IMG/VR virus record: IMGVR_UViG_3300047476_001238
Span: 79,712-137,196 of that record
Length of the DNA: 57,485 bases
Reading direction: 5' to 3' (one strand)
DNA from: a virus
Taxonomy: Duplodnaviria; Heunggongvirae; Uroviricota; Caudoviricetes
Part shown: positions 6,038 through 56,500 of the stretch, piece after piece
Layout of the letters: every line of letters begins with the position of its first letter
Position numbering within the stretch: the first letter of the stretch is position 1
The notes under the pieces: generated by a model
The model's input: only the letters and a program-made list of their open reading frames with translations
Told to the model about the DNA's origin: nothing
Databases searched by the model: none
Program-made: the position numbers and the translations under genes

Positions 6038-7480
6038 TTAGAATTTTAAGCCAGCTAGACGACGTAAAAAAGACAAATCTTCTGATACTACCGGTTCATC
6101 CATTGTGGTTGCACCAGTGGGCTGCGGCTGCGGTGTAGGCTGTTGTGGAGCCGGCTGTGTATTGGCATTTTGTTGCTGCATTATCTGCATAAACTGGTTA
6201 GCCAATGCGTTTTCTCCATTTGATGCTAACCAACCAATAATGGTTCTTCTAGCATCTGCATCCGGTCCTTGTACCTTACTTAATTTTATCAAGGCTTGAT
6301 TTAAATCTTCGCTATTAAGAAAATTGATATTTGATAGAGCTGCAATAGCGTCAGAAGCGTCAATACCAACTGCAATTGGAGTTTGCATTAGATCGCTTAG
6401 ATCTTGTTCATCTCTGTCATCGGTGTCGTCGGTCCAGGTCTGTTCTGTAATGTCGTTGGCCCAAGACTCAAATTCCACAGTCATTGGGGTGTCCATTTTT
6501 TGTTTATTTTTGTAGGCGCGATACACATAAGGCAATGCCTCGTTGAATCTGTCATCGTAAATTTTCTTAACAAAACGTTCGCGCAATGAATCAACGTCAA
6601 CTTCATCTAGTTCCTGCGATTGACCACACATATTCATTAACAATTCGTGTCCTTTGCGACCTTGTAAACGCTTTAAATTGTTTTTGACTTCGTTGTAGCG
6701 ATGTATAGCAGATTCAACCATGCCACTTGTTTCTGCGTCCTCAAATGTACGATTACGCATTGAACGCACAAAGTGTTTCATGCTGGCCATTTCCTTGACC
6801 ATTTCATTGATTAATGCTGCGCCTTCGTCATCCATGCGTCCTTCGTGGCGTAAATGATTGGCTATAGCTCTAGCGCCATGCAAGTTTGTATGGGGCAATA
6901 AGAATCTTTCTCCTAATGGAGTTTCTACGAACACATGCTCAATCTGACGTCCACGAGCACCGTGGCGTTCTGGATCAATTTGATCCTTGTGTTTAATTAT
7001 TAGCTTGTGTGTTCCAACATCACCGTAGCTGACTCTGCGGTTGTTTCCATGTCCGTACAATTTGCTTTCTGCTATAGCCAGCTCTTCTTTGTCGTATGTG
7101 GCATCAGATACACTTTGCTGTTTGATGTCTTTGAGATCTAAATTGCTACGATTGATATCTCTTACATCAAACGATAACATGTTGCGTCGTGCAAATTCTC
7201 TCAGGCCGCGAAGAAATCTATACCATTCTGTTTCTTGCTCTTCATCTAAAGCATTGGTAATGTTTGATCCAAAATAAACTTTGATGCTGTCTTCGTCAAT
7301 TAAACTGACAGTGACATTACCAAAGTTTTCTCCGCTTTCGCTGATATAATCAAAATTAAAAAAACGGGCTTGTTCGGGATCGGTGACTCGTTGAGCGTTT
7401 TCGTCACCAATATTGACGTGGTCAAAACGGGCACGTATTTTATCAAATAAAGCAGCTGAAATTTTGTTTAGTTCTCGCAT
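6038..7480 (-). CDS. Hypothetical late protein, probably head-associated
   Basis: 480 aa; TAAATA box 7 nt before the ATG; ends FLRRLAGLKF, like the scaffold C-terminus. Confidence 0.6.
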   Translation of the reverse strand: MRELNKISAALFDKIRARFDHVNIGDENAQRVTDPEQARFFNFDYISESGENFGNVTVSLIDEDSIKVYFGSNITNALDEEQETEWYRFLRGLREFARRNMLSFDVRDINRSNLDLKDIKQQSVSDATYDKEELAIAESKLYGHGNNRRVSYGDVGTHKLIIKHKDQIDPERHGARGRQIEHVFVETPLGERFLLPHTNLHGARAIANHLRHEGRMDDEGAALINEMVKEMASMKHFVRSMRNRTFEDAETSGMVESAIHRYNEVKNNLKRLQGRKGHELLMNMCGQSQELDEVDVDSLRERFVKKIYDDRFNEALPYVYRAYKNKQKMDTPMTVEFESWANDITEQTWTDDTDDRDEQDLSDLMQTPIAVGIDASDAIAALSNINFLNSEDLNQALIKLSKVQGPDADARRTIIGWLASNGENALANQFMQIMQQQNANTQPAPQQPTPQPQPTGATTMDEPVVSEDLSFLRRLAGLKF

Positions 7481-7496
7481 AGTATATTATTTATCG

Positions 7497-9059
7497 TTAA
7501 ATCATTATAAAGGGCATAGGCGCTATATAGTCATCAATGCTGTCTTTTAGCTTTTCATCCAGTTCCGAATCATAGCTTTGCAAGCCCTGCACCATTCTGA
7601 GTACCAGCAGGGTTGAAGTCACCAAATCGTCGGTTTCGCCAATTTTTGCAGCAAATCCAGGTCCATTTGCAACAAAAGTCTTTAGCTCACTGATTAAATT
7701 TTTGCTTGAAATTGTCATCTTTTTATTTTCAATGAGATTCTTGAGTTTGGCGCAAACTGCAATTTTGGTTTTATTGGTTGTAGTAAATCCTTTGCGATGT
7801 ATTCTAGCCTGACCTACTTTGACTGGCTGACTTAGGAATGTTCCTTTGATATTTTCTTCTCCTATTTCGTTGATAACAACCAGTGCCGCTTCGCCCAGGG
7901 TATTATTTTCAACGCTGTAGTAGATGTCGTTTTGTGTCCCAATCGAATCATACAAGTATTCGCATATTTCTTTAAGAATAGCAATTTGTCGTTGAATTGG
8001 GGTTTTGTTGTGCTGCCATTCACCAATTTGAATCATTGTGGGTAATTCAAACACTTGTATAGCAGCAGGGTCGCCACCGGTGCCCAAGCTTGGGTCCAGC
8101 CCAAGCACATAAGTTTTGCCACGTTGTGGTTTTTGATACCAACGTACTTGGCCTTGTCGTTCTATTGGCTCGCGTCCTTCAAGTTCGGCAAGAGTAGATG
8201 CATTAATTAGTGTTTCATCGTAAATCAAAAACTCACATCCGTGTTCACGTCTGAAACGCTCTTCGCCAATACGGCCAATTTCTTCAGATTTCCATTTCTC
8301 ATCACGATCTGGGTGTTCGTCCCAGCGAGCGCGGTATGCTTTGAATCCGTTTATGCCTATTGCTGTTGGATTCCCGAATTCGTCCGTACACTTGTTGGCC
8401 TGTTTCCATATTGTAGCAAATTGGTCTTCGTCACTGTTTGGCGTTGATGTAATAATTGCTTTACCGCCAGTGCTCAGTGTAGGTGATATGGAAGTCCAAA
8501 ACTCTTTGGCTATAGTGGGGCGCACAAACGCAAATTCGTCACAGTATAGTAGTGTAATACTCATACCTCGTCCGGTTGTTTCTGTTGTTGTTTGTGCAAC
8601 AATACGCGAACCATTTTCAAAATCTATACTGCCTTTGTTATAACTGGTGACACCGGCTCTAATAAAATCCGGACACAGTTCGTATGCATAACGCACACGT
8701 TGCATAATCTCTTGGGCGCCAGTATATTTGTGTGCTGCAATCAAGATTGTACTATCTGGTTTAAACATTGCATACCAAAGCAAGTATCCTGCTGCCGACG
8801 TAGACTTACCGGTCTGTCGAGGCATGAGACTGATACTGAATCTATTGTGATGATAAGTATCTATTAGCTTTACTTGATATTCAAACGGGTGATATAACAT
8901 TTTCCCTTTAACGGGATGTTGTATATAAAAATAATTGTCCATAAAATATTGCGGACCGTCAACTGGATCAGCACACCTTGCGAATTCCAGAATCTGGTCC
9001 TCGGTCATGTTGACTTTTTGATACGGACTCTTTATAATACTATTTGCATCGTTTTTCAT
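7497..9059 (-). CDS. 17: Terminase large subunit, T4 gp17-like (start refined from 9095 to 9059)
   Basis: Walker A PRQTGKS, Walker B LLYCDEFAF, ITSTPN, nuclease GLDPS and DDLV motifs. Confidence 0.95.
   Translation of the reverse strand: MKNDANSIIKSPYQKVNMTEDQILEFARCADPVDGPQYFMDNYFYIQHPVKGKMLYHPFEYQVKLIDTYHHNRFSISLMPRQTGKSTSAAGYLLWYAMFKPDSTILIAAHKYTGAQEIMQRVRYAYELCPDFIRAGVTSYNKGSIDFENGSRIVAQTTTETTGRGMSITLLYCDEFAFVRPTIAKEFWTSISPTLSTGGKAIITSTPNSDEDQFATIWKQANKCTDEFGNPTAIGINGFKAYRARWDEHPDRDEKWKSEEIGRIGEERFRREHGCEFLIYDETLINASTLAELEGREPIERQGQVRWYQKPQRGKTYVLGLDPSLGTGGDPAAIQVFELPTMIQIGEWQHNKTPIQRQIAILKEICEYLYDSIGTQNDIYYSVENNTLGEAALVVINEIGEENIKGTFLSQPVKVGQARIHRKGFTTTNKTKIAVCAKLKNLIENKKMTISSKNLISELKTFVANGPGFAAKIGETDDLVTSTLLVLRMVQGLQSYDSELDEKLKDSIDDYIAPMPFIMI
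9010..9038 (+). promoter_or_regulatory. Sigma70 promoter for the HNH gene, lying inside the 5' end of gene 17
   Basis: TTGACT 9010-9015, 17-nt spacer, TATAAT 9033-9038. Confidence 0.7.
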
Positions 9060-9069
9060 AATAATACTT

Positions 9070-9597
9070 ATGAGCCACACTTTACTTTTAAACAAAGATT
9101 ATACACCAATTAGCGTACTTCCGCTAAGTGTTATCCATTGGCAACATGCTGTTAAGCTTATGTTTTTGGGACGTATTCAGGTTATCGAAACTTACCCAGA
9201 CTGGATGATCCACAGCGAAAAACTATCTATTAATGTACCCAGTGTGGCTATTACTCGAGAGTACTTTAATTTCAAACGCAAAGTAAACTTTACTCGACAT
9301 AATATGTACTTGCGTGATTTGTACCAGTGCCAATACTGCGAAGATACGTTCGACTTTAAGGACTTAACCATCGACCATGTTATTCCTGTAAGCCACGGTG
9401 GCGGTACTACGTGGGAAAATTGTGTGACTAGTTGCAAACCTTGCAACTTTAAAAAAGCAGATAAGTTAATGCGTCCTATACGCAAGCCGTATCGCCCGGA
9501 TTATTGGGCATTGGCTGCTGCTTGGAAGAACAGTCCGTTTAGAGTTAAGGATCCTAAGTGGAATCAGTATTTGGGTAGAGATGCAGAAGCTGCTTAA
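9070..9597 (+). CDS. HNH endonuclease (McrA/HNH_5-like)
   Basis: RDLYQCQYC...TIDHVIPVSHGG...WENCVTSCKPCN. Confidence 0.9.
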   Translation: MSHTLLLNKDYTPISVLPLSVIHWQHAVKLMFLGRIQVIETYPDWMIHSEKLSINVPSVAITREYFNFKRKVNFTRHNMYLRDLYQCQYCEDTFDFKDLTIDHVIPVSHGGGTTWENCVTSCKPCNFKKADKLMRPIRKPYRPDYWALAAAWKNSPFRVKDPKWNQYLGRDAEAA

Positions 9598-9803
9598 ATG
9601 GGCCGTTCGCCTGTTAGATAAGGCTTACTGAACCACAATTTAAACCACTCTTCAGTCCCAGGGCGAATATCATGTCGTTTCATGAGTTCGCCTTTTTCAT
9701 TTCCTGTGACTGATATGTTGCTACCAGCAAAGCCTTTGTATTCCTGCATTACTGCACGATTACCAATGCCTGCAAGTACCTTTAGTTGTTCAATATCGTT
9801 CAT
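9594..9803 (-). CDS. Small hypothetical protein carrying the LAG motif
   Basis: 69 aa, MNDIEQLKVLAGI; overlaps the upstream micro-ORF by 14 nt. Confidence 0.65.
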   Translation of the reverse strand: MNDIEQLKVLAGIGNRAVMQEYKGFAGSNISVTGNEKGELMKRHDIRPGTEEWFKLWFSKPYLTGERPI

Positions 9804-9939
9804 TGTGTTCTTCTAATTCTTCTGCCATAGTAAACAAAAATAAGAAGCCGGCAGTAGATAAAAAAATTCCTATCGCATCGCCCCTGCTAATAGCAAAAGT
9901 TGTTAAAAACCAAAAAAATAAAAAAATAATTGTTTTCAT
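9790..9939 (-). CDS. 49-aa predicted membrane protein (not in the ORF track)
   Basis: MKTIIFLFFWFLTTFAISRGDAIGIFLSTAGFLFLFTMAEELEEHNERY; ATGA overlap with the upstream ORF; two hydrophobic segments and an acidic tail. Confidence 0.6.
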   Translation of the reverse strand: MKTIIFLFFWFLTTFAISRGDAIGIFLSTAGFLFLFTMAEELEEHNERY

Positions 9940-10103
9940 GGTGTTAATTGTTTTGCCGAACAATAGGCCTTAATTTTATCTTCTCTGTGATACGTTATAA
10001 CAGATATCACTTCTTCGCATTGGGCGAGCGTAGGATAAGAATTCCAGGCACGCCATTGTCCATCATCAGCAACCAAAACCATTAAAACAAAAACGTACTT
10101 CAT
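9936..10103 (-). CDS. 55-aa hypothetical protein with hydrophobic N-terminus (not in the ORF track)
   Basis: MKYVFVLMVLVADDGQWRAWNSYPTLAQCEEVISVITYHREDKIKAYCSAKQLTP; TGATG coupling upstream, ATGA downstream. Confidence 0.6.
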   Translation of the reverse strand: MKYVFVLMVLVADDGQWRAWNSYPTLAQCEEVISVITYHREDKIKAYCSAKQLTP

Positions 10104-10165
10104 CAGTGTTCGCCATATGGCACCACCGGAAGATCATTTTCTGAATCTTGGTTTTCGTTGCCCAT
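10103..10165 (-). CDS. 20-aa acidic micro-ORF (not in the ORF track)
   Basis: MGNENQDSENDLPVVPYGEH; start overlaps the nuclease stop (TAATG) and stop overlaps the next start (TGATG). Confidence 0.45.
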   Translation of the reverse strand: MGNENQDSENDLPVVPYGEH

Positions 10166-10599
10166 TACTGGCACCACGATTGCTTGGCTTCGCCGTAGTA
10201 TTCTCTAGCAAATCCATTGGCAATCAATTGAGCACGTAAGCTTTGTCCATCTAGTATCATGTCGCCTAGTACACGGCCACCAAACTTGTCCCAACCGTAA
10301 AGGATCACTTGACGCTTGACTGACTTGGCTACTGCATTCTTGGTAAATGCAGTTGCAGCTTCACCTCGCTGTGCTTCGCTAGCACATTGAGCACGATGTC
10401 CTTTTTCTGGTGTATCAACTCCATACACACGAACAGCCAATTCAGGCTTGAGTGGCTGTGGTAAAAATGGTGCTGCAATAACAACTGTGTCGCCGTCATT
10501 GACACGAACAATTTGTGCATCATATGTGACGCCTTGTGGTGCCTTTTGTGCAAATGCTAAAGCAGGTGCTAGTAATAGAATTGCGAATAGTTTTTTCAT
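10165..10599 (-). CDS. Thermonuclease (staphylococcal nuclease fold) with Sec signal peptide
   Basis: DGDT, RVYGVDTPE and DKFGGR catalytic motifs; MKKLFAILLLAPALAFA signal peptide. Confidence 0.9.
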   Translation of the reverse strand: MKKLFAILLLAPALAFAQKAPQGVTYDAQIVRVNDGDTVVIAAPFLPQPLKPELAVRVYGVDTPEKGHRAQCASEAQRGEAATAFTKNAVAKSVKRQVILYGWDKFGGRVLGDMILDGQSLRAQLIANGFAREYYGEAKQSWCQ

Positions 10600-10611
10600 T
10601 GATTTTTTCCT

Positions 10612-11043
10612 TTAAGATTTTGTGTAAGTTGTTACATAATTGCCGCCGGGTTTGATGTCTTTTCCTACTCCACCAAATCCAATGCCTTTATCCATTCTAA
10701 CTGTGTGTGTCTGTCCAGGAGTACCTAATGCTCCTGTTGTATCCTTGTATGCAGCAGAGACACTTGTGGTACCTCCCATTTGCCCCTTATTATAAGCCGG
10801 GGTGCTTTTTTGAGCTGAAAGATCTACACCATTTATATTTGTTTTTACTCCAACAGTTGATGCACCACCAGGATTGAAATCTCGAGTTGCTGTTAATTGC
10901 GTAGTATCATCTACATCAAGTTGTCCAGTAAATGTTTTAGTAGGTTTGTCTGCTGTAAATTTTGCATTGCCAAGATCTAAAGTGGCAGAGTCTTGTTCAT
11001 CAAGAATATCTAAATATCGTCTAAAGAATCTTGGGTCAGACAT
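10612..11043 (-). CDS. Hypothetical protein, probable internal head protein (start refined to 11043)
   Basis: MSDPRFFRRYLDILDE; TAATG coupling to the upstream gene. Confidence 0.55.
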   Translation of the reverse strand: MSDPRFFRRYLDILDEQDSATLDLGNAKFTADKPTKTFTGQLDVDDTTQLTATRDFNPGGASTVGVKTNINGVDLSAQKSTPAYNKGQMGGTTSVSAAYKDTTGALGTPGQTHTVRMDKGIGFGGVGKDIKPGGNYVTTYTKS

Positions 11044-12071
11044 TACCAACTCCTACACGACCAATAACGTGCCTTCCATCTTGGTCCCGGATTAGCGCAG
11101 TTGTGTCTTGCTCTGAAACTCTTACGACGTTTAGGGTTTGACTTTTTGATACGCATGTTAGGATCACCAAATTCAACTTTAACAATGTTGCCGTTTGGCT
11201 TTCTTACATACACTTTGGATTTCTTAACATCACCAGGCATTTTCTTGCCCAGTGGAACTGTGCGGCCTCTGTACTTTGCTTCATTGGTAGTGGCACGAAA
11301 TTGTGCCATTGGGCCTTGTCCACCTTTTTCAGTGTAGTCCATCCAAGGCTTACTTACATCCTGCTGAAACTCTTGTTCGTAGCTGTCGTCTTTCATTTTA
11401 TTGATAAGATAATCGCCGGCACCAGTTTTGGGATCTCTAGCAAAGGTGCGAGAAGTGTACTCTTGACTGAATTTTGGTTCACCTTTACTAGAATTAGAAT
11501 ATGTGGCTCTTTGATCTGCATAGGCCGATACCAGAGTTTTATTGTCTTTAGGAACCACTGGGCTTGTTGACTTATAGCTGTCAGATTTGGGATCGTACTT
11601 GTTTACACCACCGTGCTTGTCAGTCCAGCTATCTTGCCCCCACTTGAAATCATCTTCATGAACCATATAATCCTTGGGATCTTTTTTTGCTTTTGGTTCA
11701 GTTAACGGACTTGTATCAACAGGATTTCTTGTAGGCTTCTTTGGAGCAGTTGCTCCTGTATCTTTGGACATGTACTTGTTTTCAAGATCGTCATCGGCGC
11801 TTTTATCTTTGTTTACATTTGAATGTATTGGGCTTATAGTTTGAGTAGCAGGGGGCATGTTTGTTGGATTCTCTGTAATGTATCCCGCATGCGTTAAAAT
11901 TTTCATCATTGTGTCGTCTGCTTCTAATACTATTCCATCTTCAAATACATCAACAATGTATGTTTCAATCAAAGTTTCGTCTCTAGCGATTTCTAATTCA
12001 AACACATCACCTACCGCAGGATTACCTTCAGTTAATTCTGCTTCGGTTAGATAGTCACGAAAACTTTTCAT
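11043..12071 (-). CDS. Probable internal head protein with basic Cys/His C-terminal domain (start refined to 12071)
   Basis: MKSFRDYLTE resembles the T4 capsid-targeting sequence; C-terminus ...KSFRARHNC...RYWSCRSW. Confidence 0.6.
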   Translation of the reverse strand: MKSFRDYLTEAELTEGNPAVGDVFELEIARDETLIETYIVDVFEDGIVLEADDTMMKILTHAGYITENPTNMPPATQTISPIHSNVNKDKSADDDLENKYMSKDTGATAPKKPTRNPVDTSPLTEPKAKKDPKDYMVHEDDFKWGQDSWTDKHGGVNKYDPKSDSYKSTSPVVPKDNKTLVSAYADQRATYSNSSKGEPKFSQEYTSRTFARDPKTGAGDYLINKMKDDSYEQEFQQDVSKPWMDYTEKGGQGPMAQFRATTNEAKYRGRTVPLGKKMPGDVKKSKVYVRKPNGNIVKVEFGDPNMRIKKSNPKRRKSFRARHNCANPGPRWKARYWSCRSW

Positions 12072-12072
12072 A

Positions 12073-14430
12073 TCACTTGCCTTTCCACTGCTGAGGTGGT
12101 AATACTTTAATTGGCTCTCCATCTTTACCAACTACTTCGCCTTTGTCGGCTTGGAGTCTATTTAAGTGTGTATCATATCGATCATTGACTTGTTTTTCGT
12201 ACTCGGTACCTTTGTACTGCTTACGCATGGCGTCAAGATCACGTAATTGTTGACTGGTTCTTAGCTTGCTGGCCTCTGTACCTACTAGGTCACCAACAAA
12301 GTTTGAAACGTCGTCCCATCCTTCGTCAACTTCTTTTTCATCACCGCTACCAATTGTGACATGGCGTGGGCCACCAACACGATCATCCGAGGAGTGAGTT
12401 GTTAAAGGAAGTTTGGATTGATCTGGGGCGCCAGATTTTTTTGGTGGCGGAAATGTTGCACGTACTCTGCCTGTTTCTGGATCTTTTTTGATTTCAGGAT
12501 CATCTTTGTTGTCCCTAATCAAGATACTTTCCAACATGGCATCCAAATCTGCATCAAGCGTACTTTCGGCCATTGGATTGTCCCCCAACTTTGGCTTGTC
12601 TGCATATTGACGCTTTTCTCTATTTAGATCATTGCCTTGACGAATAATGCTGTCCACGGTTTGATATTCTTCTTCTGGAGTGTTTTCGTATTCTGTTTCT
12701 CTATCAGCTTCCATCATTTCTTCATCGCCGTCGGACATGACAACCATTGCTGGGCGATCGCTACTGTTCATACCTGCTAGTTTGAGCATTGATAATAGTT
12801 CGTCTGCTTTGTCGCCTTGAGCTGAGATGTTTACACTCTTTGTGCCGTTGCTGCTCATATTGGTGCTTACATTCATAGTGTCATGACTATTCATACCCAT
12901 GTCGCCGCATTCGTCTAATTTGCTTTCACTTAGTCCAGCCAAGCGAGCCAATTCACTTAAAGTATTATCCACAACTGGCTGTTCGGTCACAACAGACTCG
13001 CTCATGCTGCTGCCCATATCTGCATAGAAACGCTCCTCAACCCACTGATACGGATCACCTTCGCGACCTTTAGCAACGCCGTATGGCATTTCGCCTGTAT
13101 CAAGATAGTAATCGTACAGTGCATCGTATAGATTTTCTGCCATAAATCCATTGTTCATGAAATTTTTGACTTCATGTTTGAATCTATTAGCAATATGCTT
13201 TAGTGCATTGCCACCTTCATCTAACATAACATCTTCGTTGACTTTCTTAGGAAGGCCTTTGTGTTTGGTGCTTGCGAAATCTTTTGTGTCTTTTTTGCTC
13301 ATAGTTTTAGCTGCTTTCTTTAATTCAGGACTAGCGCCTTTGACCTTTTCACCTTTTTGCATAGCATGTACCATGCCCATAAATTTTTGTTGCTGTTTAC
13401 TAACAGCTTTTTCGTTTAATGCAAGTCCACTTAGGCGCATCATTTCTTCTAATTCCATGTTATCTTGTTCCTCTAATTCATCTTCGGCGAATTGTCCATA
13501 GCCACCAGCGGGTTTAGTAGCGGTAGTTGTAGCAGGTTCTGGGGCAGCATTCAGTGCTGCTGTGGCCGCTTGATCTGAAGTTTGTGTTGGTGCTGATTTA
13601 CTTGCCATTGCGGTAGCGGCATTATTTGTTGGCTGATTACCACCAAACATTCCTTTAACTTTGTCTCCTACTGCACTAGCAAAATCTCCAAAGCTGGCAT
13701 AGCTTTTTGTTGCTTGATTTTGTTGTCCATAAAGACCGCCAGCTTTTTGATCTGCTGCAATTTTGTCTGACGTTCTAGACACTACATTAGTGGTTCCTGC
13801 AACAGGTTGATAATCGCTTTTAGAGGCAGTAGCGGTGTTGGTCGCTGCTGGTGCAGTCTGCGGATTTACTTGTGCAACTGGCTTGTATGCACCGCTATTT
13901 ACTTGTGCTTGCAGTCTATCTCGTGCGGCAGTTGCTTCTTGATCTACGTTGGCATCTGCTGCTGGTGCTGTATTAAGTGCTGCTGTAGCAGTCTGGTCCG
14001 AGGTTTGTGTTGGTGCAGACTTACTTGCCATAGCTGCTGCGCCTCTTGTGTCAGTTGCTGGATTGTCAACTACTTCTTCGCCAGCATCTAATGATTGATC
14101 TGCTGGCACTGTTTGTGCCGCTTGATTGGTATCTGTAGCTGCAGGTTTTGCTACTCCGGCAACGTTGATATCTGTAGCAGCGCGATCTGAGATAGTTGGT
14201 GCAACAGCCGCTGTACCGGCTGGCTGCGGTTGGCTGAATTTCTTTGCTAGTGCCATGTTAGCTGCGGCTGTTCCGGCTGTAAACCCTGGACCTAGTGCTG
14301 CATCAACTTTGGCTTGATTCAATCTATCTGCTTTGTTCATGAACTGGCCGCCGCTTGTTTGTGCAAGTTTTGTCCCAGTTGCGCCTTGTGCCGGCGCTTC
14401 GAATAAGTCTATTAAGTCTCGCATGTTCAT
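12073..14430 (-). CDS. 785-aa probable internal head protein containing a DUF3008-like module
   Basis: KAVSKQQQKFMG...FASTKHKGLPKKV resembles DUF3008; three LxGL-type motifs; Ala/Thr-rich N-terminal half. Confidence 0.6.
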   Translation of the reverse strand: MNMRDLIDLFEAPAQGATGTKLAQTSGGQFMNKADRLNQAKVDAALGPGFTAGTAAANMALAKKFSQPQPAGTAAVAPTISDRAATDINVAGVAKPAATDTNQAAQTVPADQSLDAGEEVVDNPATDTRGAAAMASKSAPTQTSDQTATAALNTAPAADANVDQEATAARDRLQAQVNSGAYKPVAQVNPQTAPAATNTATASKSDYQPVAGTTNVVSRTSDKIAADQKAGGLYGQQNQATKSYASFGDFASAVGDKVKGMFGGNQPTNNAATAMASKSAPTQTSDQAATAALNAAPEPATTTATKPAGGYGQFAEDELEEQDNMELEEMMRLSGLALNEKAVSKQQQKFMGMVHAMQKGEKVKGASPELKKAAKTMSKKDTKDFASTKHKGLPKKVNEDVMLDEGGNALKHIANRFKHEVKNFMNNGFMAENLYDALYDYYLDTGEMPYGVAKGREGDPYQWVEERFYADMGSSMSESVVTEQPVVDNTLSELARLAGLSESKLDECGDMGMNSHDTMNVSTNMSSNGTKSVNISAQGDKADELLSMLKLAGMNSSDRPAMVVMSDGDEEMMEADRETEYENTPEEEYQTVDSIIRQGNDLNREKRQYADKPKLGDNPMAESTLDADLDAMLESILIRDNKDDPEIKKDPETGRVRATFPPPKKSGAPDQSKLPLTTHSSDDRVGGPRHVTIGSGDEKEVDEGWDDVSNFVGDLVGTEASKLRTSQQLRDLDAMRKQYKGTEYEKQVNDRYDTHLNRLQADKGEVVGKDGEPIKVLPPQQWKGK
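13549..14037 (-). repeat. Internal duplication of about 21 codons in the 785-aa gene (about 13972-14037 and 13549-13614)
   Basis: AMASKSAPTQTSDQTATAALN versus AMASKSAPTQTSDQAATAALN, with synonymous DNA differences. Confidence 0.85.
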
Positions 14431-14431
14431 T

Positions 14432-17400
14432 TTATTTTTTTGCCCTTCCAGCTAACCATAAAATATCTTTAAGTTCAGTATTTACCGATTCGGGAACTCG
14501 TATTGTTTCCCGATCAGCGGGCGGGCGTCGATTACCAGTAAGGGTATCAATTCCTTGATTCCATTTATCAACAAATGATTCTGGTTCTTGAGTTGATAGA
14601 TTTGGACTGATTTTTTCTAATTCTTTTCTGGCTTTTTCGTCGTCTATCTTTTTCTGTAGTTCTGCCTTGGCACGCTCAATATCTTGTTTGTCACTTGTGC
14701 CTGTTCCCCATGGCTTCCCAGTTCCAGAAACAACAGGAGTGCCGTCGGTGGAACGTAATACATCTGCGGGCTTACTACTAGCTAGACTAGCTGCAGAGGC
14801 AGAATCATCGGATGATACATCAAATCCGTGTATCCATAACTTGGCATCTCTAAGTCTTCTTTCGCGTTCCTCTGGAGATAATGCATCCATTTCTTTTCGT
14901 ATAGGATCCCACAACTCGTCGCTTTTTATTTCATCGGCGGTACGCGGTGCGGGTCTCACATCAGGATCCTGGCTTAATATTCTTTCTAGATCATCTGCAC
15001 GGCGTAATTTGGCTCTAGCACTTGCTTGGGCGTCTGCTGCTGCTTTATAACCTGCGCCAATTTTACTACCACTAGCATCTAAGTCTGCTTGTGATGGTCT
15101 GCTGACTTTTACCTTGGGAGCAACTTCATCAGCATAGTCAGTTGTGAATTGTGCTTCTTTACCAGTGACCGGATCTTTGAAAGTAAATGTTCCGCCACTG
15201 CCTTTACCAGTGTCCTGAATTTGTTTTGCTCTAGCTGCTGCAAATGCTTTTTCAAACTCTTTGCGAACATTAACTTTGGTATCTGCATCTGCCTTAGGTT
15301 CGGCATCTGCCTTTGGTTCTGACACTACCTTTGTACTTTTCTTTTCTTTCTTATCTACTGTTGCTACAGAAGCAGGTACTGCCGCAGGAGGTTCTGATTT
15401 GGCTGGAACTGTTGCTGTACTCACTCCCTTTGCAGGCTTAGCTAAGTCGGAGTCTGCTTTTGCAGATTGCGGTCCTATAGCAGGTACACTACTAGCGCGA
15501 CCAGACACAGACTGTTGCGTTGTTGTCTTTTCTGCTTTTTTGGTTGTTTTACCAGGTTCAATTACATTGCCAAAATCATCAACTGCTGGCATCTCTTTAG
15601 GTACTGGCGACGACTTTTTAGGTGTTTGTGTTTTTTCATCATTCCACCATTTTTGAAGTCTGTCGGCGATAGATCCTGGTTCTGTAGTTATAGAAATTTT
15701 AGTGTCAGTTCCTTTGTCTGAAGCTGCTTTATCCTTTGCGTAATCTTGCTTTAATTTCTCTAGCTGTTGTTTAAGTTCGCCTGTTTTCTTTCCTGCTGCT
15801 TCTGCTTGTTTAATAATGTTTTCAAGCTCTTTAACAGGATCTTTATAATTTTGTAATTGCTTATTGATTTTTGCCAATTCTGCTGCATCTGGGGCTCTTG
15901 GAGTCTTCCCGGAGCGATCGGCTTTTTCTGGCCCACCTTGATTGGATGGAAGTTCACCAGCAACTGCACTACCAATTGGTAGCATGTTAGTGATATTTTT
16001 AGCAATAGTTTTGTATCCTTTGGGATCAAGATGCAAATTCATTGGATCCTTTTTTGAGGCAGGTCCCAAATCAACTATTGGCGCTATTGTTTGTCCTTGT
16101 GTCATTGCTTGGCGCAACTGATCGCGCATTTGCTTTGTCTTGGGATTGTCAGTGGCAGTAGGTAATAAATGAACCACTTGAAGACCACGAGCTTTGGCAG
16201 CAGCAATCAGTTTGTTTACTTGACTGGTGATAACTTCTGGCTTGGCCGACGCAACATCGTTGCCTCCTCCGCTAATGGCCACAACACTACCTGGAGGAAT
16301 TTTTTCTATATTGGCCAAATGAACTTTAAACTGCTTGGGATCTAGTATACTGGCTCCACGATAGGCCATGCTTTTGTCCCACTGTTCGCCACCATAACCA
16401 GCCACACCCTGTGCTTGACTGTCGCCCACAGCATAATACCCTGGTCTTGCTGCTTTGGTGTCCCGCTTGGGTTCTGCGGTTTTTTGATCAACTCGTGCTA
16501 CTTGTGTTCCATCAATGCTGGTATCAATACCGTGAATCTGTTTAAGATCAGCAACTTGATCGTTTACCCATTTCCAACTTTTTGGTCCGTATCCTTGTTT
16601 GATTTCTGTTGCAGGTAAACTGGCCCATTGGCTTTTTAATTTTTTTACTGCATTTGTGTAGTCGCCTTTTAGTACAGAATCTAATGCACCTCGGTCGGCA
16701 ATCATTTGTATTGCAATTTTGTCTTGCGATTCCGGTCCAAAATCTTTAAGGCCTAATTTTTTAGAGTAAGGACCCCAATTGGCTCCCATAATTTGGTATT
16801 TACCGGCTGCATCACTAGGTATTGTTTTACCGCGTGATTTTAAATAAACTGTTTTGTTAGGATGCGAACTGAAGTCGTTGAATTTGCCGCCACCTACAAG
16901 TGTATTGTAATTGGTATTACCTTCTGCTCTTGCTATTAGATCCAGCATAACACGGATATTAGGATTTGTTCTAAGATCGTCTAAATCTAGTTCCTTTCGT
17001 TCCGACAGTTGAGCTTTGTAATCAAGATACTTTTCTGCTAATGTTTTTTCTTTACCCGCAGGTGCTTTGCCTTGTGGCGGCAAGTCTTTGATTGGAGATT
17101 CTGGTTCGGCTGCAGGTTTTTGAGGTGCAGGCGATGCCGGTGCCGGTTGATCTGTCGCTGGTGCAGGCGCTGGTGCTGATTGTTGCGTGTTTTGTTTATC
17201 TATAATGTCAGACAGTAATTCGCCTTCTTCGCCTTTTTTAATAATATCTTTTTCTGGTCCTCGGCGCCACCAGTCTATACCTTTTTGAACCACATCTGGT
17301 CCATAATAAAATCCGGTGCCCAGTGCCGCACCAGACCCACCCCACCGTAATCCTGTGCCTAATGCTTTTTTGCCAAACTCTTTTGCTGCACCTGTCAATG

Positions 17401-18175
17401 TTCCGCGCTCGAGTTCGCGCATCTTTAAAAGAGTGTCTAACTGTTGAGCGTGTTTGGCTGCATATTCTGGTCCCATGGCCGCTACTCTATCTGAGTAGGC
17501 CTTATCAGTCTCAAGACGTCCTCTTTTTGGTAATTCTACAGTTGTTGATGGTTCTCCGACTATTGGCGTATCGCCATCTGATTTTGGTTTCCCGCGACGA
17601 TCAATAACTTTAACTTCTTTTTCTGCTCGACGTGCTGCTTCTTCTTCTGCTCTAGCAATAGCATCGCGTTCAGCTGCGCTTAAAGGTGGCTTGGGTTCAA
17701 TACGAGGAGGAGCTTCGGGTGCACCTTTTCTAAGATTTTTAATCCAGTCCATGGCCATTGAGCCATATTTTTTAGGATTAAAAAGTATGTCTCTCAATCC
17801 GGCTTCGTCAAGCTGACCTGACTGTTCAAGACGATCTAGTTCTTCAAATCCCTCAGGTAAAAAACTAGGATCGTATTCTTGATTCTTTATTGAATCGTAA
17901 TACTCTTTACCAAGATTTACCCAGCCGCCTTTTTCTTTAGCATAATCACGCAATTGGTTTAGCGCATCAAGACCATAACTAGCCGCAGTAGCACCTCCGT
18001 GTGGTATAAAACCAATTCCAGTGGCTGCACCAGCAATGCCTGCACCAAGGTAATCGCCTTGTCCTGCTCTGATTGCAGCATCAACAAAACCAACACCCGG
18101 GGCTGACTTTTTTAAAACTTTAACAGCATCCCCTTCGTTAAGAGGCGACTGCTTGGCTATTTCATGGATTTTCAT
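14432..18175 (-). CDS. 1247-aa multidomain protein: lambda R-type lytic transglycosylase (about 16590-16970) plus SGNH hydrolase (about 15985-16440)
   Basis: MLDLIARAEG...YNTLVGG...HP...AGKYQI...LGLKDFGPESQD...WASLP parallels lambda R; GDSQ, GGND and LHL..GY SGNH blocks. Confidence 0.8.
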   Translation of the reverse strand: MKIHEIAKQSPLNEGDAVKVLKKSAPGVGFVDAAIRAGQGDYLGAGIAGAATGIGFIPHGGATAASYGLDALNQLRDYAKEKGGWVNLGKEYYDSIKNQEYDPSFLPEGFEELDRLEQSGQLDEAGLRDILFNPKKYGSMAMDWIKNLRKGAPEAPPRIEPKPPLSAAERDAIARAEEEAARRAEKEVKVIDRRGKPKSDGDTPIVGEPSTTVELPKRGRLETDKAYSDRVAAMGPEYAAKHAQQLDTLLKMRELERGTLTGAAKEFGKKALGTGLRWGGSGAALGTGFYYGPDVVQKGIDWWRRGPEKDIIKKGEEGELLSDIIDKQNTQQSAPAPAPATDQPAPASPAPQKPAAEPESPIKDLPPQGKAPAGKEKTLAEKYLDYKAQLSERKELDLDDLRTNPNIRVMLDLIARAEGNTNYNTLVGGGKFNDFSSHPNKTVYLKSRGKTIPSDAAGKYQIMGANWGPYSKKLGLKDFGPESQDKIAIQMIADRGALDSVLKGDYTNAVKKLKSQWASLPATEIKQGYGPKSWKWVNDQVADLKQIHGIDTSIDGTQVARVDQKTAEPKRDTKAARPGYYAVGDSQAQGVAGYGGEQWDKSMAYRGASILDPKQFKVHLANIEKIPPGSVVAISGGGNDVASAKPEVITSQVNKLIAAAKARGLQVVHLLPTATDNPKTKQMRDQLRQAMTQGQTIAPIVDLGPASKKDPMNLHLDPKGYKTIAKNITNMLPIGSAVAGELPSNQGGPEKADRSGKTPRAPDAAELAKINKQLQNYKDPVKELENIIKQAEAAGKKTGELKQQLEKLKQDYAKDKAASDKGTDTKISITTEPGSIADRLQKWWNDEKTQTPKKSSPVPKEMPAVDDFGNVIEPGKTTKKAEKTTTQQSVSGRASSVPAIGPQSAKADSDLAKPAKGVSTATVPAKSEPPAAVPASVATVDKKEKKSTKVVSEPKADAEPKADADTKVNVRKEFEKAFAAARAKQIQDTGKGSGGTFTFKDPVTGKEAQFTTDYADEVAPKVKVSRPSQADLDASGSKIGAGYKAAADAQASARAKLRRADDLERILSQDPDVRPAPRTADEIKSDELWDPIRKEMDALSPEERERRLRDAKLWIHGFDVSSDDSASAASLASSKPADVLRSTDGTPVVSGTGKPWGTGTSDKQDIERAKAELQKKIDDEKARKELEKISPNLSTQEPESFVDKWNQGIDTLTGNRRPPADRETIRVPESVNTELKDILWLAGRAKK

Positions 18176-18966
18176 TTTGCAAATTTGTCTTTCTTGGGAC
18201 GGCCACGGCCTTTCTTTGCTACCTCACCTGTTTCATTGTCTGTGTCTGGTTCGTCTTTTTGTGCTGATCCACCATAACGTTTACCGGCTTTGATTCCACT
18301 ACCGCCGCTGGGCTGAGGGCCGCTGCGTTCTTTGGCAGCTTTCATCATGTCGTCCCATCCCTCGTGTACTGGCTCCATTTCGCCGTCGCCGTCTAGGTCA
18401 GCTTGCTTTAAACCTTGTGCTCTGGCTTTTGCAAGATTGCCTGAAAACTTATTACCTTCAGTTTTCTTGTCTTTCTTGGCGCCTGCAATTTTGTCTGCGT
18501 AAGTAATTTTGTCTTTGGGCTCAGCTAACGCTGCAAACTTCTTTTGTGCAGGTGACAGCATGTCTTCGTTGTATTCACCTTCATCCATCTTGTCGTGTTT
18601 AGCACGAATCTTGGCCATTTTTTCTTTGCTAGCACCATCGCGCCCAGCTTGTTGTAGGGCCTTCATGCCTTGCTCGCCGTATTTCTTTTTACCCAAGTAA
18701 GCTTGTAAGCCGCTTTCTTCCATCTCGCGTTCGCTCAATTGTTTTTTGTGATTGTTGTATTTCTCTGCCAACTGTTTTTCAACACGAGCAACTGCTTCGC
18801 CAATAGCACCTTTACTTTTTTCTTTGGCAGCTTTTTTCAATGGTTCTTTCTTGTCACTATCTTTATCAAGGAAATCAGGCTTGGCTTTTTTGCCTTCATT
18901 TAGGCTCTGCTTGGGTGCTTCTAGGTTTTCCATCTTCTTTAAGATGTCATAGATATTGTTGCTCAT
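18172..18966 (-). CDS. Highly charged probable internal head protein
   Basis: Lys/Glu-rich, several hydrophobic-x-E sites, DLDGDGE (Dx[DN]xDG-type) motif. Confidence 0.55.
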   Translation of the reverse strand: MSNNIYDILKKMENLEAPKQSLNEGKKAKPDFLDKDSDKKEPLKKAAKEKSKGAIGEAVARVEKQLAEKYNNHKKQLSEREMEESGLQAYLGKKKYGEQGMKALQQAGRDGASKEKMAKIRAKHDKMDEGEYNEDMLSPAQKKFAALAEPKDKITYADKIAGAKKDKKTEGNKFSGNLAKARAQGLKQADLDGDGEMEPVHEGWDDMMKAAKERSGPQPSGGSGIKAGKRYGGSAQKDEPDTDNETGEVAKKGRGRPKKDKFAK

Positions 18967-19586
18967 TTGTTTTTTCCTTTAATGGGTGGTAATTTATTTT
19001 GTTGGCTTCCTACCGGGCTCTTAGTGCCTTGTGGTAGTGCATTAGTTGTTTGCGCTGGCTTGGTTCTTTCGCTGGCACGGGTTGAAGTTAATTCTGGCTC
19101 TTTAAATCCAGTTAACTTAGGTGACTGTGCGTCTAGTTCTTTTAATAAACTGTCTTTGCGTTTGTCGCCCACTAGGTCCTGTCCGCCAGGAACGTCTTGA
19201 AGTTCACTGTCCAATAGCAATGACCCTTCGTGGTCTTTGCCATATGCTTCAGCATAATCATTTTGATCGGCTTGTTGTTTACCGTAAACACAAACCCACT
19301 CAGCTTGCATGCCGGTGCGCTCTTTTAACAGTTGTGCAATTTGTACACTGGTTGTGGGGTAAGCAACTGTGGCTTCAAACTGCCAGCATTCGCAAGGTCC
19401 CCATTTTGGAAACTCTCTGTGTTCTTGTACGGGCATACTTTTTGGTGCGGTAATATCTACCAGCTCGTACGCATCAAGAGCATTCTTAATTTCTTCCATA
19501 ATATCTTTAGGATCTTGCTTTGCTACTTTGATCCTAAAAGCATAATTTGAATTTCGTTCGGCTATATAATCGTGAAGACTTTTCAT
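18963..19586 (-). CDS. Probable internal head protein
   Basis: MKSLHDYIAE N-terminus; TAAATA box (19610-19615) and AGGA SD. Confidence 0.6.
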   Translation of the reverse strand: MKSLHDYIAERNSNYAFRIKVAKQDPKDIMEEIKNALDAYELVDITAPKSMPVQEHREFPKWGPCECWQFEATVAYPTTSVQIAQLLKERTGMQAEWVCVYGKQQADQNDYAEAYGKDHEGSLLLDSELQDVPGGQDLVGDKRKDSLLKELDAQSPKLTGFKEPELTSTRASERTKPAQTTNALPQGTKSPVGSQQNKLPPIKGKNK

Positions 19587-54170: not shown

Positions 54171-55367
54171 TTACTGGAACGATAGGTTCGAAACAGCAAT
54201 CTCACCTAGGTAGTCGGCAGCATTACCAAACGATGATGCTGTGTTTGTTAACTCGATATAACCATAACGAGTCATAAAGCCAACTACTGGCTCAAATGTT
54301 GCTGGATCTAGAACAACGCCAGAGCTCATTAGAGGGATATATGGGCAGTAGAACGCGGCTGCATCAGCCTCGCTTGAACCCTTATAACCAACTAGAACTG
54401 CTTGGCTATCGCTAGCATAGCTGTCAACGTAGATACGCATTGCGCCGTTTAGTGTACCAACAAACTTGGTGTTGGTAGGAGCTTCAAAGGTACCTTCAGT
54501 TGTACGTGCAAATGCCGAAGTTGTTGCGCTCTGTAGTACAGTTAGAGCTGCTGGACTTACAACTGCCCAGTTACCAGCGCCACGACGTGTACGTGAAGCG
54601 ATTAGGTTTGCTGTGCGGTTGATTAGAACAGCTAATGCAGCGTGTTCGTCACCAACGAAAGTAGCAGTACCACTTACAGCAGCTTGGTCGAATGTGAATT
54701 CGGTTGCTGCTAGACTACGTAGAGAACCTAAGATTTCTTGGTCGATCTCAACGGTGATCTCTTGTGCAAGAGCAGCCATGATTTCTGCTTCGATGTCAAG
54801 ACCATGCATGGCTTGTGCATCTTGAGCAGCTTCGAAAGTCCAGCGTGCGCTTAACTTACGAGTCTTGGCTTCAACTACTTGCTTTAAGATCTGAACGTTG
54901 ATACGATTACCAGTCACACCTTCAAGTGCGCTAGTAGCCGCTGCACGACCAGTAGTAGCAGTACCACCATTGGTTAAACCAGAGTATGCAACTGCAATCT
55001 TAAATGGACTTAATGCTTCGTCACCAGCAGTAGTACCAGTAGCGTATGGGCTAGCAGTATCTGTGGTAGTGTCAGCATAACGAACACGTAGAGTGTGAAT
55101 TTGTGCTACAGGGCCAGTCATCGGCTGAACACCAACGATTTCGTTAGCAATAACGGTTGGCATAACACGACGAATAACTGGTAGAATAACACGGTTTAGA
55201 GTTGCAACGTTTGATGCAGCAGTAGCGCCAGCAGTTGCAGTTTCCATTAGGTGCTTGCGGGTGTTTTCAAGAATAACGCCCATTGTGGTTCTTTTCGAAC
55301 CGTTTAAGCCTTCTAGCAGAGCGTCTTTTGTTTCGCCCCAACGGCTTTCTAATAGTGCTTGTGACAT
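54171..55367 (-). CDS. 23: Major capsid protein gp23
   Basis: VGVQPMTGP, KTRKLSARWTFEAAQD.QAMHGLD.EAE, YCPYIPL, GFMTRYG. Confidence 0.97.
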   Translation of the reverse strand: MSQALLESRWGETKDALLEGLNGSKRTTMGVILENTRKHLMETATAGATAASNVATLNRVILPVIRRVMPTVIANEIVGVQPMTGPVAQIHTLRVRYADTTTDTASPYATGTTAGDEALSPFKIAVAYSGLTNGGTATTGRAAATSALEGVTGNRINVQILKQVVEAKTRKLSARWTFEAAQDAQAMHGLDIEAEIMAALAQEITVEIDQEILGSLRSLAATEFTFDQAAVSGTATFVGDEHAALAVLINRTANLIASRTRRGAGNWAVVSPAALTVLQSATTSAFARTTEGTFEAPTNTKFVGTLNGAMRIYVDSYASDSQAVLVGYKGSSEADAAAFYCPYIPLMSSGVVLDPATFEPVVGFMTRYGYIELTNTASSFGNAADYLGEIAVSNLSFQ

Positions 55368-55393: not shown

Positions 55394-56500
55394 TCACTTT
55401 AGCCCTGCTAACCGCTTGATTTCAAAAACGTTATTAGCGTTTTCTTCAACTGCGGCAGTATTAGCAGATTTATCACCAGTTATTTCTACACGGCTTTCAG
55501 CTAACATAGACTTAGCTTGTTTTGCTGGTTGAGCTGTGTTGTTTAAAACAGCTGGTAGATACTTATCGTATGCACTCTGTAATTTTACAGTCTGCACACT
55601 TTCAAGAAGTTCGCTCATAACTGTAGCTTTCTCCTTGTTTAAAGGTTTTAGCAGATTCGCTAGGATTTCTTTACGTTCTGCTGACTCTTTAATAACTTTA
55701 ATTTCTTTCTCTTTTGATTCAACAATCATTGCAGCCGAATCAGCTTGTGCTCTAGCTTCCGCTAGTGCTTGCTCTTTGGCAGCAACAACAGCTTGTAGCT
55801 TGCGAATCTCTTTGTTCTCATTTAGGTGAGTCACAGCAAATTCACTTGCAAAAGCTTCAAAGATTTGACGACCAAACATGTTCTCGCGAGCCATGTGGAT
55901 GTCTTCTTTGAGTTGAGTCATTTCTGACTCTAGTTTCTTGGTAATTGATTCCTTAACTAGTTCTGCAGAACGAGCGATGAAATTCTGTTGCAGTTCAGCA
56001 AGCTTGTCTTTAGCACCAGCGATTAGACGAACTTTTGTCTCTACCACTGCTTGCTTGTCTTGCTCAAACTCTTGAATTTCCTCTGCTAGTGATTTGATCA
56101 CAAATGATTCTAGCTTACTAACACTATTTTCATATTGCTTGCGATCTTCACGTAGTTCTTTAATTTCTTCAGCTAGTTTACCAACTAAGAAATTATTAAA
56201 CTTTTCGCTGCTTTCCATCATGTGAACTTTAAATTTCGCACGATCTTCTGCTAGAGCTTGTTTCTCTGCGGCAAACTCTTCAAGTTCGCTTTGTAGAGAT
56301 TCAGTTACCATTTTGTCTAGAGCTTCAACCATAACTTGTTTGTCATGCTGATAGCGAGTGGCAAATTCTTCACGAAGTTCTGCACGTACACTTTCGCGGG
56401 CTTCAAGAAGTTTTGCTTCCCATGCTTCGCTAATAGCTGTACGAGTATCCTCGTTTATGATGCCGCTGTCTACCAATGGTTTGATAGCATCTAATAACAT
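55394..56500 (-). CDS. 22: Prohead core scaffolding protein gp22
   Basis: Long acidic coiled coil between gp21 and gp23; ends EIKRLAGLK. Confidence 0.88.
   Translation of the reverse strand: MLLDAIKPLVDSGIINEDTRTAISEAWEAKLLEARESVRAELREEFATRYQHDKQVMVEALDKMVTESLQSELEEFAAEKQALAEDRAKFKVHMMESSEKFNNFLVGKLAEEIKELREDRKQYENSVSKLESFVIKSLAEEIQEFEQDKQAVVETKVRLIAGAKDKLAELQQNFIARSAELVKESITKKLESEMTQLKEDIHMARENMFGRQIFEAFASEFAVTHLNENKEIRKLQAVVAAKEQALAEARAQADSAAMIVESKEKEIKVIKESAERKEILANLLKPLNKEKATVMSELLESVQTVKLQSAYDKYLPAVLNNTAQPAKQAKSMLAESRVEITGDKSANTAAVEENANNVFEIKRLAGLK

Follow-up and report, generated by a model that had tools for sequence, protein, structure and literature searches.

A scaffold-tail peptide of an uncultured jumbo phage recurs on otherwise unrelated proteins and may serve as a prohead-docking signal

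In P22, herpesviruses and other HK97-fold systems the C-terminal end of the scaffolding protein binds the coat protein, with the coat-binding elements including a helix-turn-helix in P22 gp8, the C-terminal approximately 25 residues of herpesvirus UL26.5/UL26 and the tails of nested pairs such as lambda C/Nu3. In herpesviruses and lambda the protease has the same tail as the scaffold and is recruited by it, and engineered P22 cargo loading uses the same principle. To our knowledge, tail sharing was previously known from such nested protease/scaffold products and from engineered P22 cargo, and not from separate non-homologous genes. Contacts between N-arm and scaffold have been described (PMC9546572). 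Portable cargo signals of other types are the Family 1 encapsulin cargo-loading peptide, of G-S-L type with the consensus SDGSLGIGSLKRS (PMC8346489), and the N-terminal capsid targeting sequence (CTS) of phage T4, through which a range of internal proteins enter the scaffolding core (PMC3012670). Here we describe a short peptide, the LAG motif, that ends the gp22-like prohead scaffold of an uncultured jumbo phage of approximately 350 kb having a T4-type head module, and that recurs in four further proteins encoded within the same 57,485-nucleotide stretch of DNA. This stretch, hereafter the window, corresponds to G000:C1:79712-137196 in a 137-kb IMG/VR record (IMGVR_UViG_3300047476_001238) with a completeness estimate of 37%. 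As judged from sequence comparisons, the motif is supported as a real portable element under strong protein-level selection.

Seven copies of the motif, then summarized as 'RLAGL', had been quoted for five proteins in a first-pass annotation of the window, and all were found to be real, in frame and on the minus strand, with a six-frame scan finding exactly these seven. They do not all fall within positions 6038-19586, the range that had been given for them, as the scaffold gene lies approximately 36 kb outside. The carriers, with lengths in amino acids (aa), and their copies are as follows, in window coordinates.

6038..7480, minus strand: 480-aa virion-structural-protein homologue beside the large terminase (phrog_13484)
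6047..6076, minus strand: C-terminal LAG motif of the 480-aa protein, LSFLRRLAGL followed by KF and stop (LSFLRRLAGLKF, stop)
9594..9803, minus strand: 69-aa protein, with an N-terminal LAG motif MNDIEQLKVLAGI at 9765-9794
12073..14430, minus strand: 785-aa mosaic protein with a low-complexity N-terminal half, a DUF3008-like domain and three LAG copies
13423..13452, minus strand: copy a of the 785-aa protein, LEEMMRLSGL
12931..12960, minus strand: copy b of the 785-aa protein, LSELARLAGL, lying within the 18-aa module that recurs in the 480-aa tail
12769..12798, minus strand: copy c of the 785-aa protein, LLSMLKLAGM
14432..18175, minus strand: 1247-aa protein with lysozyme-like and SGNH/GDSL esterase domains and a LAG tail (phrog_90, phrog_17230, PF13472, PF00657)
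14444..14473, minus strand: C-terminal LAG variant of the 1247-aa protein, LKDILWLAGR followed by AKK and stop (LKDILWLAGRAKK, stop)
55394..56500, minus strand: gp22-like prohead scaffold, 368 aa, coiled-coil (phrog_10922; tblastn to PA5oct, 121Q, there annotated 'scaffolding (T4 gp22-like)', and Atu_ph07)
55400..55429, minus strand: LAG motif at the scaffold C-terminus, VFEIKRLAGL followed by K and stop

The carriers were rightly described as otherwise unrelated, since BLASTP detects nothing else in common among the five, the sole similarity above chance level between the 480-aa and 785-aa proteins being the 18-residue module around the motif (EPVVSEDLSFLRRLAGL versus QPVVDNTLSELARLAGL). The motif is conserved, enriched and portable among otherwise non-homologous proteins, at a terminus or between domains: it is C-terminal in three of the five window carriers, present as three internal copies in one and N-terminal only in the 69-aa protein. 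A relaxed scan of the whole record gave an eighth copy, ELMDMQRLAGILD, in a 100-aa open reading frame (ORF) outside the window (G000:C1:10868-11170), and at least six carrier families were found in the lineage. Alignment of the copies gave a consensus fuller than 'RLAGL', namely [DE]-phi-x-x-phi-[RK]-[RKW]-L-[AS]-G-phi, with hydrophobic residues (phi) at -6 and -3 and, as a rule, an acidic residue at -4 or at -7/-8; position -2 is often basic, position -1 is basic (or Trp), and L-[AS]-G-phi follows. Terminal copies continue with 0-4 mostly basic residues, and internal copies with Ser/Asn/Thr and acidic residues. An enrichment check with the expression [LIM]x[RK]L[AS]G[LMI], as had been proposed, gave six matches against 0.06-0.09 expected, the chance level being set by comparing the crude proteome of the 137-kb record, based on our own crude ORF calls as in all our ORF sets, with residue-shuffled proteomes, in which 0 of 200-300 shuffles reached six. 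The copy in the 1247-aa protein is real and kept in orthologues but falls outside that expression, with W at -1 and R at +3. Our literature searches gave nothing relevant on 'RLAGL' or on jumbo-phage scaffold targeting.

On the scaffold, the motif is kept over large evolutionary distances. The scaffolds of 80 IMG/VR relatives (76-95% identity) all end NV[VFI]E[ILF]KRLAGL plus at most one residue, whereas the 10-15 residues ahead of this tail vary freely, and the invariant C-terminal columns of a 23-sequence scaffold alignment are V358, E360, K362, R363, L364, A365, G366 and L367. The nearest cultured relatives of the window phage are the jumbo phages PA5oct, Vibrio phage 2.275.O, Atu_ph07/Phosso and the Rak2/121Q/CBB/Yen9-04 group, with 64-70% identity in the capsid protein and 32-43% in the scaffold. 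The tail is kept in six distant cultured phages at 33-43% scaffold identity, the scaffolds ending with VEELRRLAGIK (PA5oct), INDLKRLAGIKK (Atu_ph07), LDRLTKIAGIRK (Vibrio 2.275.O), LDEISRYAGIKKKR (Yen9-04), LKELDVLSGINKK (121Q) and LLEMLASRAGIRK (XaC1), each directly before the stop, and a LAG tail ends every scaffold of the PA5oct/Rak2/Atu_ph07 jumbo-phage supergroup. The LAG tail is ancestral on the scaffold, and its reuse is derived and concentrated in late/structural genes of some lineages.

The copies on the other carriers were also found to be conserved. The 480-aa protein, the N-terminal 327 aa of which match PA5oct gp278, a virion protein by electrospray ionization tandem mass spectrometry (ESI-MS/MS), has the LAG tail at its end in 76 of 76 complete orthologues at 90-41% identity. 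The Pro/Gln-rich linker ahead of the tail is hypervariable in both sequence and length, orthologues with inserted domains (526-825 aa) still carry the tail at the extreme C-terminus, and only R411, W417, L475 and G477 are invariant within reference positions 411-480, the last 70 of the alignment. An AlphaFold2 (AF2) model of this protein, made from a 38-sequence alignment and having a mean predicted local distance difference test (pLDDT) score of 74, has a body folded to about residue 440, residues 440-467 with pLDDT<50 and then a short helix at 469-475, of low confidence, that stops at A-G. In this model the tail has the look of a tethered short linear motif, and the invariant Gly with its hydrophobic neighbour would fit a helix C-cap. 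A Foldseek search of the model against the PDB gave no match at E <= 0.001. The PA5oct, 121Q and Vibrio homologues of the 480-aa protein, which lack the C-terminal tail, share a conserved internal segment at the same position, reading LKRLQGR, LKRLSGV or LKLAGT. Orthologues of the 1247-aa protein, the domains of which fit an ejected cell-wall enzyme, are just 40-50% identical and all end DIL[WR]LAGR-x-[KR]-[KR], as in ...DILRLAGRKK and ...DILWLAGRVKR. In one related contig (IMGVR_UViG_3300042485_002515) the scaffold is 93%, the 480-aa protein 87% and the 1247-aa protein 40% identical to those of the window. The orthologues of the 785-aa protein (793-1177 aa, only 40-50% identical) have three to four LAG copies, and the N-terminal motif of the 69-aa protein is kept in approximately 40 distinct orthologous sequences, in some of which the module lies inside a longer ORF; the end of this protein is a conserved PGTxEWFxLWFSxPYLTGE.

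In 53 distinct tail DNAs the conserved positions are encoded by all six Leu codons, by all four Gly codons, and by Ala codons along with Ser codons of both families. Selection has therefore acted on the peptide and not on the DNA, and a DNA-level element was ruled out by this full synonymous codon turnover. The same turnover speaks against the motif being a neutral leftover, without function, from the recombination or duplication of neighbouring late genes. The 18-residue module that the 480-aa tail has in common with copy b would fit such an origin, as would the variation from three to four copies among 785-aa orthologues, which shows module shuffling. However, the motif is conserved far more strongly than the flanking linkers in 76 orthologues down to 41% identity, and the motif recurs independently in PA5oct, and we thus regard a neutral remnant as barely credible.

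A second element, phi-T-G-[ND]-[KRE], accompanies several of the copies.

55466..55483, minus strand: ITGDKS in the scaffold tail, residue 340, just after a putative L-x-E protease site
14525..14542, minus strand: LTGNRR, residue 1212, upstream of the LAG tail of the 1247-aa protein
12808..12834, minus strand: VNISAQGDK, TG[ND]K-like, ahead of copy c of the 785-aa protein
9693..9710, minus strand: NISVTGNEK, after the LAG motif in the 69-aa protein

The spacing to the LAG motif is alike in the scaffold (ITGDKS 340 to L364) and in the 1247-aa protein (LTGNRR 1212 to L1241). In every supergroup scaffold phi-T-G-[ND]-[KR] directly follows an L-x-E-S site, reading VTGDR, VTGNR or KTGNR in Vibrio 2.275.O, Atu_ph07, Yen9-04, 121Q, XaC1 and PA5oct. 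Five matches to phi-T-G-[ND]-[KRE] were found in the record versus 0.89 expected, and 0 of 200 shuffles reached five. The portable unit may thus be bipartite, with a TG element and a LAG helix, although the evidence for this is weaker than for the LAG motif. The capsid protein itself holds VTGNRI at residues 151-156 (about 54900-54917).

We scanned the genomes of PA5oct, Vibrio 2.275.O, 121Q and Atu_ph07, as well as a 221-kb contig of a close relative (G001), using a 13-column matrix trained only on anchor-selected instances from IMG/VR relatives of the window lineage. These whole-genome scans replaced a 14-column profile search that gave no match in five phage records, the profile being too short. 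Of the related genomes, a scan of which had been proposed, PA5oct gave four matrix matches at >=17.5 bits, whereas 20 shuffled proteomes gave none. One match is the scaffold tail, one lies in gp249 (IDRIKKLAGIS) and two lie in gp281 (MFNINDILRLAGV, N-terminal, and LDEISKLAGIS, internal). With the original expression, enrichment in 121Q and Vibrio 2.275.O was not significant because of drifted dialects (LDVLSGI, LTKIAGI). In the PA5oct record NC_071039 both gp249 and gp281 are annotated as 'structural protein; ESI-MS/MS', and the scaffold is not; 93 of 461 PA5oct proteins are virion-associated (PMC7318152). The gp281 gene lies directly upstream of the terminase gene, which is the position of the variable gene block of the window, and highly acidic gp281 homologues with two to three copies in local dialects are found in Vibrio 2.275.O (235552-236787) and in 121Q (gene 560, annotated as a virion structural protein). 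The G001 contig, which has mostly non-structural genes, gave only the scaffold copy and an orthologue of the small ORF.

The carriers cluster in a block of probable head-internal-protein genes. Region 6038-19586 is ordered as a head-completion homologue, the variable block, the large terminase, the 480-aa gene and a gp32-like single-stranded-DNA-binding protein. Several N-termini in the block are CTS-like.

19557..19586, minus strand: MKSLHDYIAE, N-terminus of a 207-aa protein
12042..12071, minus strand: MKSFRDYLTE, probable true start of a 362-aa ORF, two bases after the stop of the 785-aa protein
18146-18175, minus strand: MKIHEIAKQ, CTS-like start of the 1247-aa protein

For comparison, T4 ipII and ipIII start with MKTYQEFIAE, as checked in their sequences, and the PA5oct virion protein gp282 starts with MKSFRDYYDA. 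Given these CTS-like starts, the block probably encodes head-internal or ejected proteins. The block genes of 207, 264, 1247, 785, 362, 145, 144, 55 and 69 aa had no BLAST homologues in PA5oct, Vibrio 2.275.O or 121Q, and megablast of the block against cultured phages gave no match; the stretch between the head-completion and terminase genes evolves very fast.

With moderate confidence, we propose that cargo proteins mimic the docking tail of the scaffold in order to enter the prohead, a route that would complement the CTS-like N-terminal tags of the block. The other components that this proposal involves are encoded together with the scaffold, in the order protease, scaffold and major capsid protein on the minus strand.

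56511..57152, minus strand: gp21-like prohead serine protease (Peptidase_S77; PF03420, phrog_207), alternative candidate partner
54171..55367, minus strand: gp23-family major capsid protein, 398 aa (PF07068 at 4e-99), candidate binding partner

The scaffold tail would be an ancestral docking element in the form of a short amphipathic helix capped by Gly, and head-associated proteins in some lineages would have acquired copies of the module, of approximately 11-18 residues, at a terminus or between domains. Such copies would take up the position of the scaffold tail while the prohead assembles. The gp23-like capsid protein, by its luminal face or its N-terminal region, would most plausibly provide this site, another core component being the less likely provider, and carriers would be recruited in proportion to their abundance. 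The capsid protein is favoured as partner because it is the best-conserved candidate across the supergroup; the greater part of our confidence in docking goes to this partner, the choice of which in itself remains tentative. Multi-copy proteins, such as the 785-aa protein and those of the PA5oct gp281 type, would be multivalent, serving in the core or as adapters. After assembly, the gp21-like S77 protease would digest the scaffold and the linkers at nearby phi-x-E sites, thereby releasing the scaffold and perhaps the cargo; the capsid protein propeptide is likely cut after HLME(42), as suggested by comparison with T4 gp23. T4 gp23 is presumed to touch the core through its N-terminal region, and the contact between scaffold core and shell in T4-type phages is structurally unresolved (PMC9546572, PMC3012670). 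A co-fold of the capsid protein with scaffold residues 325-368 scored 0.00, at a partner pLDDT of 42-44, and was counted neither way. An internal helix of the capsid protein (residues ~205-225 of the protein encoded in the window) is weakly motif-like, reading ...LGSLRSLAA in the window, ...LNRLRILAG in PA5oct and ...LGSLRSLAG in G001, with matrix scores of 12-14 at a null of approximately 0.2 per genome; this resemblance may be a coincidence.

The proposed partner could also lie in the core instead of the shell, if LAG helices were to bind one another or the coiled coil of the scaffold and so knit minor core proteins into the scaffold core; this would be the core-binding part of the first-pass inference, standing alone. 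The acidic multi-copy proteins (the 785-aa protein, PA5oct gp281, Vibrio 235552-236787 and 121Q gene 560) do resemble multivalent cross-linkers, and in T4 gp22 builds the core together with gp67, gp68, internal proteins and Alt (PMC9546572), which can be counted for such self-association. Yet a helix of approximately seven residues that ends in Gly is short for a stable homotypic bundle, and with the tail far better conserved across the supergroup than the scaffold body and the capsid protein 64-70% identical, a shell partner fits better. Self-association is in our view rather unlikely.

Another reading would have the motif as a docking or recognition element (exosite) for the gp21-like protease, or as another kind of mark on processing substrates, governing cleavage rather than recruitment of prohead proteins. 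The scaffold is the main substrate of the protease, its tail region has a conserved L-x-E-S...TG[ND][KR], and a phi-x-E site lies directly ahead of many copies, both in the window (LSE/LARLAGL, LEE/MMRLSGL and VFE/IKRLAGL, the slash marking the site) and in other phages (LKE/LDVLSGI in 121Q, LDE/ISRYAGI in Yen9-04 and LLE/MLASRAGI in XaC1). S77 proteases need Glu at P1, as established for T4 gp21, and the eight copies of this genome have Glu at -4 in just three cases, while the invariant L-[AS]-G contains no Glu. On the same count, an L/I-x-E cleavage site was ruled out as the defining feature of the motif. PA5oct gp281 and gp249 moreover persist in virions, and taken together these findings make a protease exosite quite improbable.

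That the terminal copies are basic and amphipathic (FLRRLAGLKF, LRKLAGLVKK) brings to mind membrane-targeting or host-factor-binding helices of the MinD/FtsA C-terminal type, with a role in localising assembly proteins to the inner membrane, where T4-type proheads start, or after ejection in the next host, and we presume a likeness of these copies to the MinD tail. T4 proheads assemble on the membrane (PMC9546572), which was counted in favour of this explanation. Such helices tolerate change, however, whereas L, [AS] and G of the motif are essentially invariant, the upstream residues are acidic and the internal copies are followed by acidic segments. We consider a membrane or host-factor helix very unlikely.

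Several findings weigh against docking by scaffold mimicry. Binding of the peptide, the identity of its partner and its role in packaging are all things that we infer. Reuse is not general to the group, since the matrix scan of Atu_ph07 found the scaffold tail only, with no reuse, and in 121Q strong drift of the motif has left no significant enrichment in the matrix scan either. Two of two PA5oct carriers being virion-positive is weak statistics (about p = 0.04), and the 100-aa ORF (115 aa in an orthologue) sits in a non-head region. The CTS-like N-termini on several carriers could suffice for packaging, and with CTS-like sequences in the block the LAG motif is therefore not the sole candidate address label. 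T4 gp22, finally, is without the motif and ends with DIVSVYAKVASRF, so that nothing can be transferred directly from T4 genetics.

Among T4 proteins, gp22 ends ...VYAKVASRF, and the minor scaffold protein gp68 (NC_000866 103023-103448) ends ...KRRKALGLS, with a basic tail and an A-L-G-L core that is loosely LAG-like. In the 785-aa protein, the N-terminal 300 residues are of Ala/Thr/Gln-rich low complexity with an internal repeat, MASKSAPTQTSDQ, present twice, and the DUF3008-like domain lies directly after copy a (window 13240-13405, residues 342-397), matching PF11450 just under the cut-off and phrog_26015, 30268, 28725 and 10538 at 1e-16 to 1e-19. Small conserved ORFs of 100-115 aa, located away from head genes, combine a CTS-like start (MKITDIIRGVLD... 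or MRITELEQLNE...) with a LAG copy.

G000:C1:10868-11170: small LAG ORF in the record of the window
G001:C1:7939-8286: small LAG ORF in the contig of the close relative
Vibrio phage MG592671, 17071-17406: small LAG ORF

Compared with the systems described at the outset, the LAG motif has its closest functional match, as far as sequence features can tell, in the encapsulin cargo-loading peptide, and it is not a member of that family. Both are short terminal peptides common to non-homologous cargo, with a core of small residues or Gly, hydrophobic flanks and a basic end; the encapsulin peptide is likewise found on unrelated cargo, mostly at the C-terminus and sometimes at the N-terminus, behind a flexible linker, and is directed to the lumen of an HK97-fold shell, where it binds a pocket of the shell protein (PMC8346489). 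They differ in that the LAG motif reads L-[AS]-G-phi after a helix, departing from the G-S-L consensus of encapsulins, in that its container would be a phage prohead with a separate scaffold bearing the same peptide, shell binding being only proposed, and in that the peptide may be removed by a protease.

The T4 CTS (MKTYQEFIAE, in IPI-III and Alt) is similarly a short, portable peptide, by which unrelated proteins are loaded into the core of a T4-type prohead (PMC3012670). It is however strictly N-terminal, ends in an L/I-x-E cleavage site and is not found in gp22, whereas the LAG motif may sit at either terminus or internally, does not require a Glu and coincides with the tail of the scaffold itself. 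The LAG copies have neither the extreme N-terminal position nor the MK-x-Y-Q-E-F-I-A-E consensus of the CTS, with an equivalent of its Glu in three of eight copies.

With the coat-binding tails of scaffolds the motif has in common that it is a putative amphipathic helix at the extreme C-terminus of the major scaffold and is its most conserved part, so that position and conservation are alike. The proteins that share such tails are in-frame nested products of one gene, in contrast to the LAG carriers, which are separate non-homologous genes, some of them with multiple internal copies. P22 moreover has a helix-turn-helix, whereas the LAG motif would be a single short helix; the model of the 480-aa carrier shows, at low confidence, one short helix after a disordered linker.

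For the giant phiKZ-like phages and SPN3US we know of no defined common docking peptide identical to the scaffold tail, and these phages differ in protease specificity and capsid lineage. Their propeptide-directed ejection or inner-body proteins offer a parallel in that many head-internal proteins are incorporated and processed by the prohead protease (PMC5694885, PMC7411985).

The N-terminal CTS has so far been the sole defined cargo signal for T4-type heads, and the LAG motif offers, for a large group of jumbo phages, a peptide of 11-18 residues that is a mutable candidate for the scaffold-shell (or scaffold-core) contact. It also gives a sequence rule by which head-internal or ejected proteins can be predicted in uncultured genomes, might supply a tag, C-terminal or internal, with which to package proteins into phage heads, and likens phage scaffolds to encapsulin cargo loading in mechanism. 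A broader interpretation, which we find possible yet doubtful, is that the bipartite module, a phi-T-G-[ND]-[KR] strand and a LAG helix copied from a capsid-docking tail of the scaffold, constitutes a second, scaffold-mimicking cargo code that lets any protein occupy scaffold sites on an HK97-fold shell. If true, viruses would have in this code a counterpart to the encapsulin cargo-loading peptides, perhaps one related to them by evolution, and a natural C-terminal or internal tag for the loading of foreign proteins into giant phage heads.

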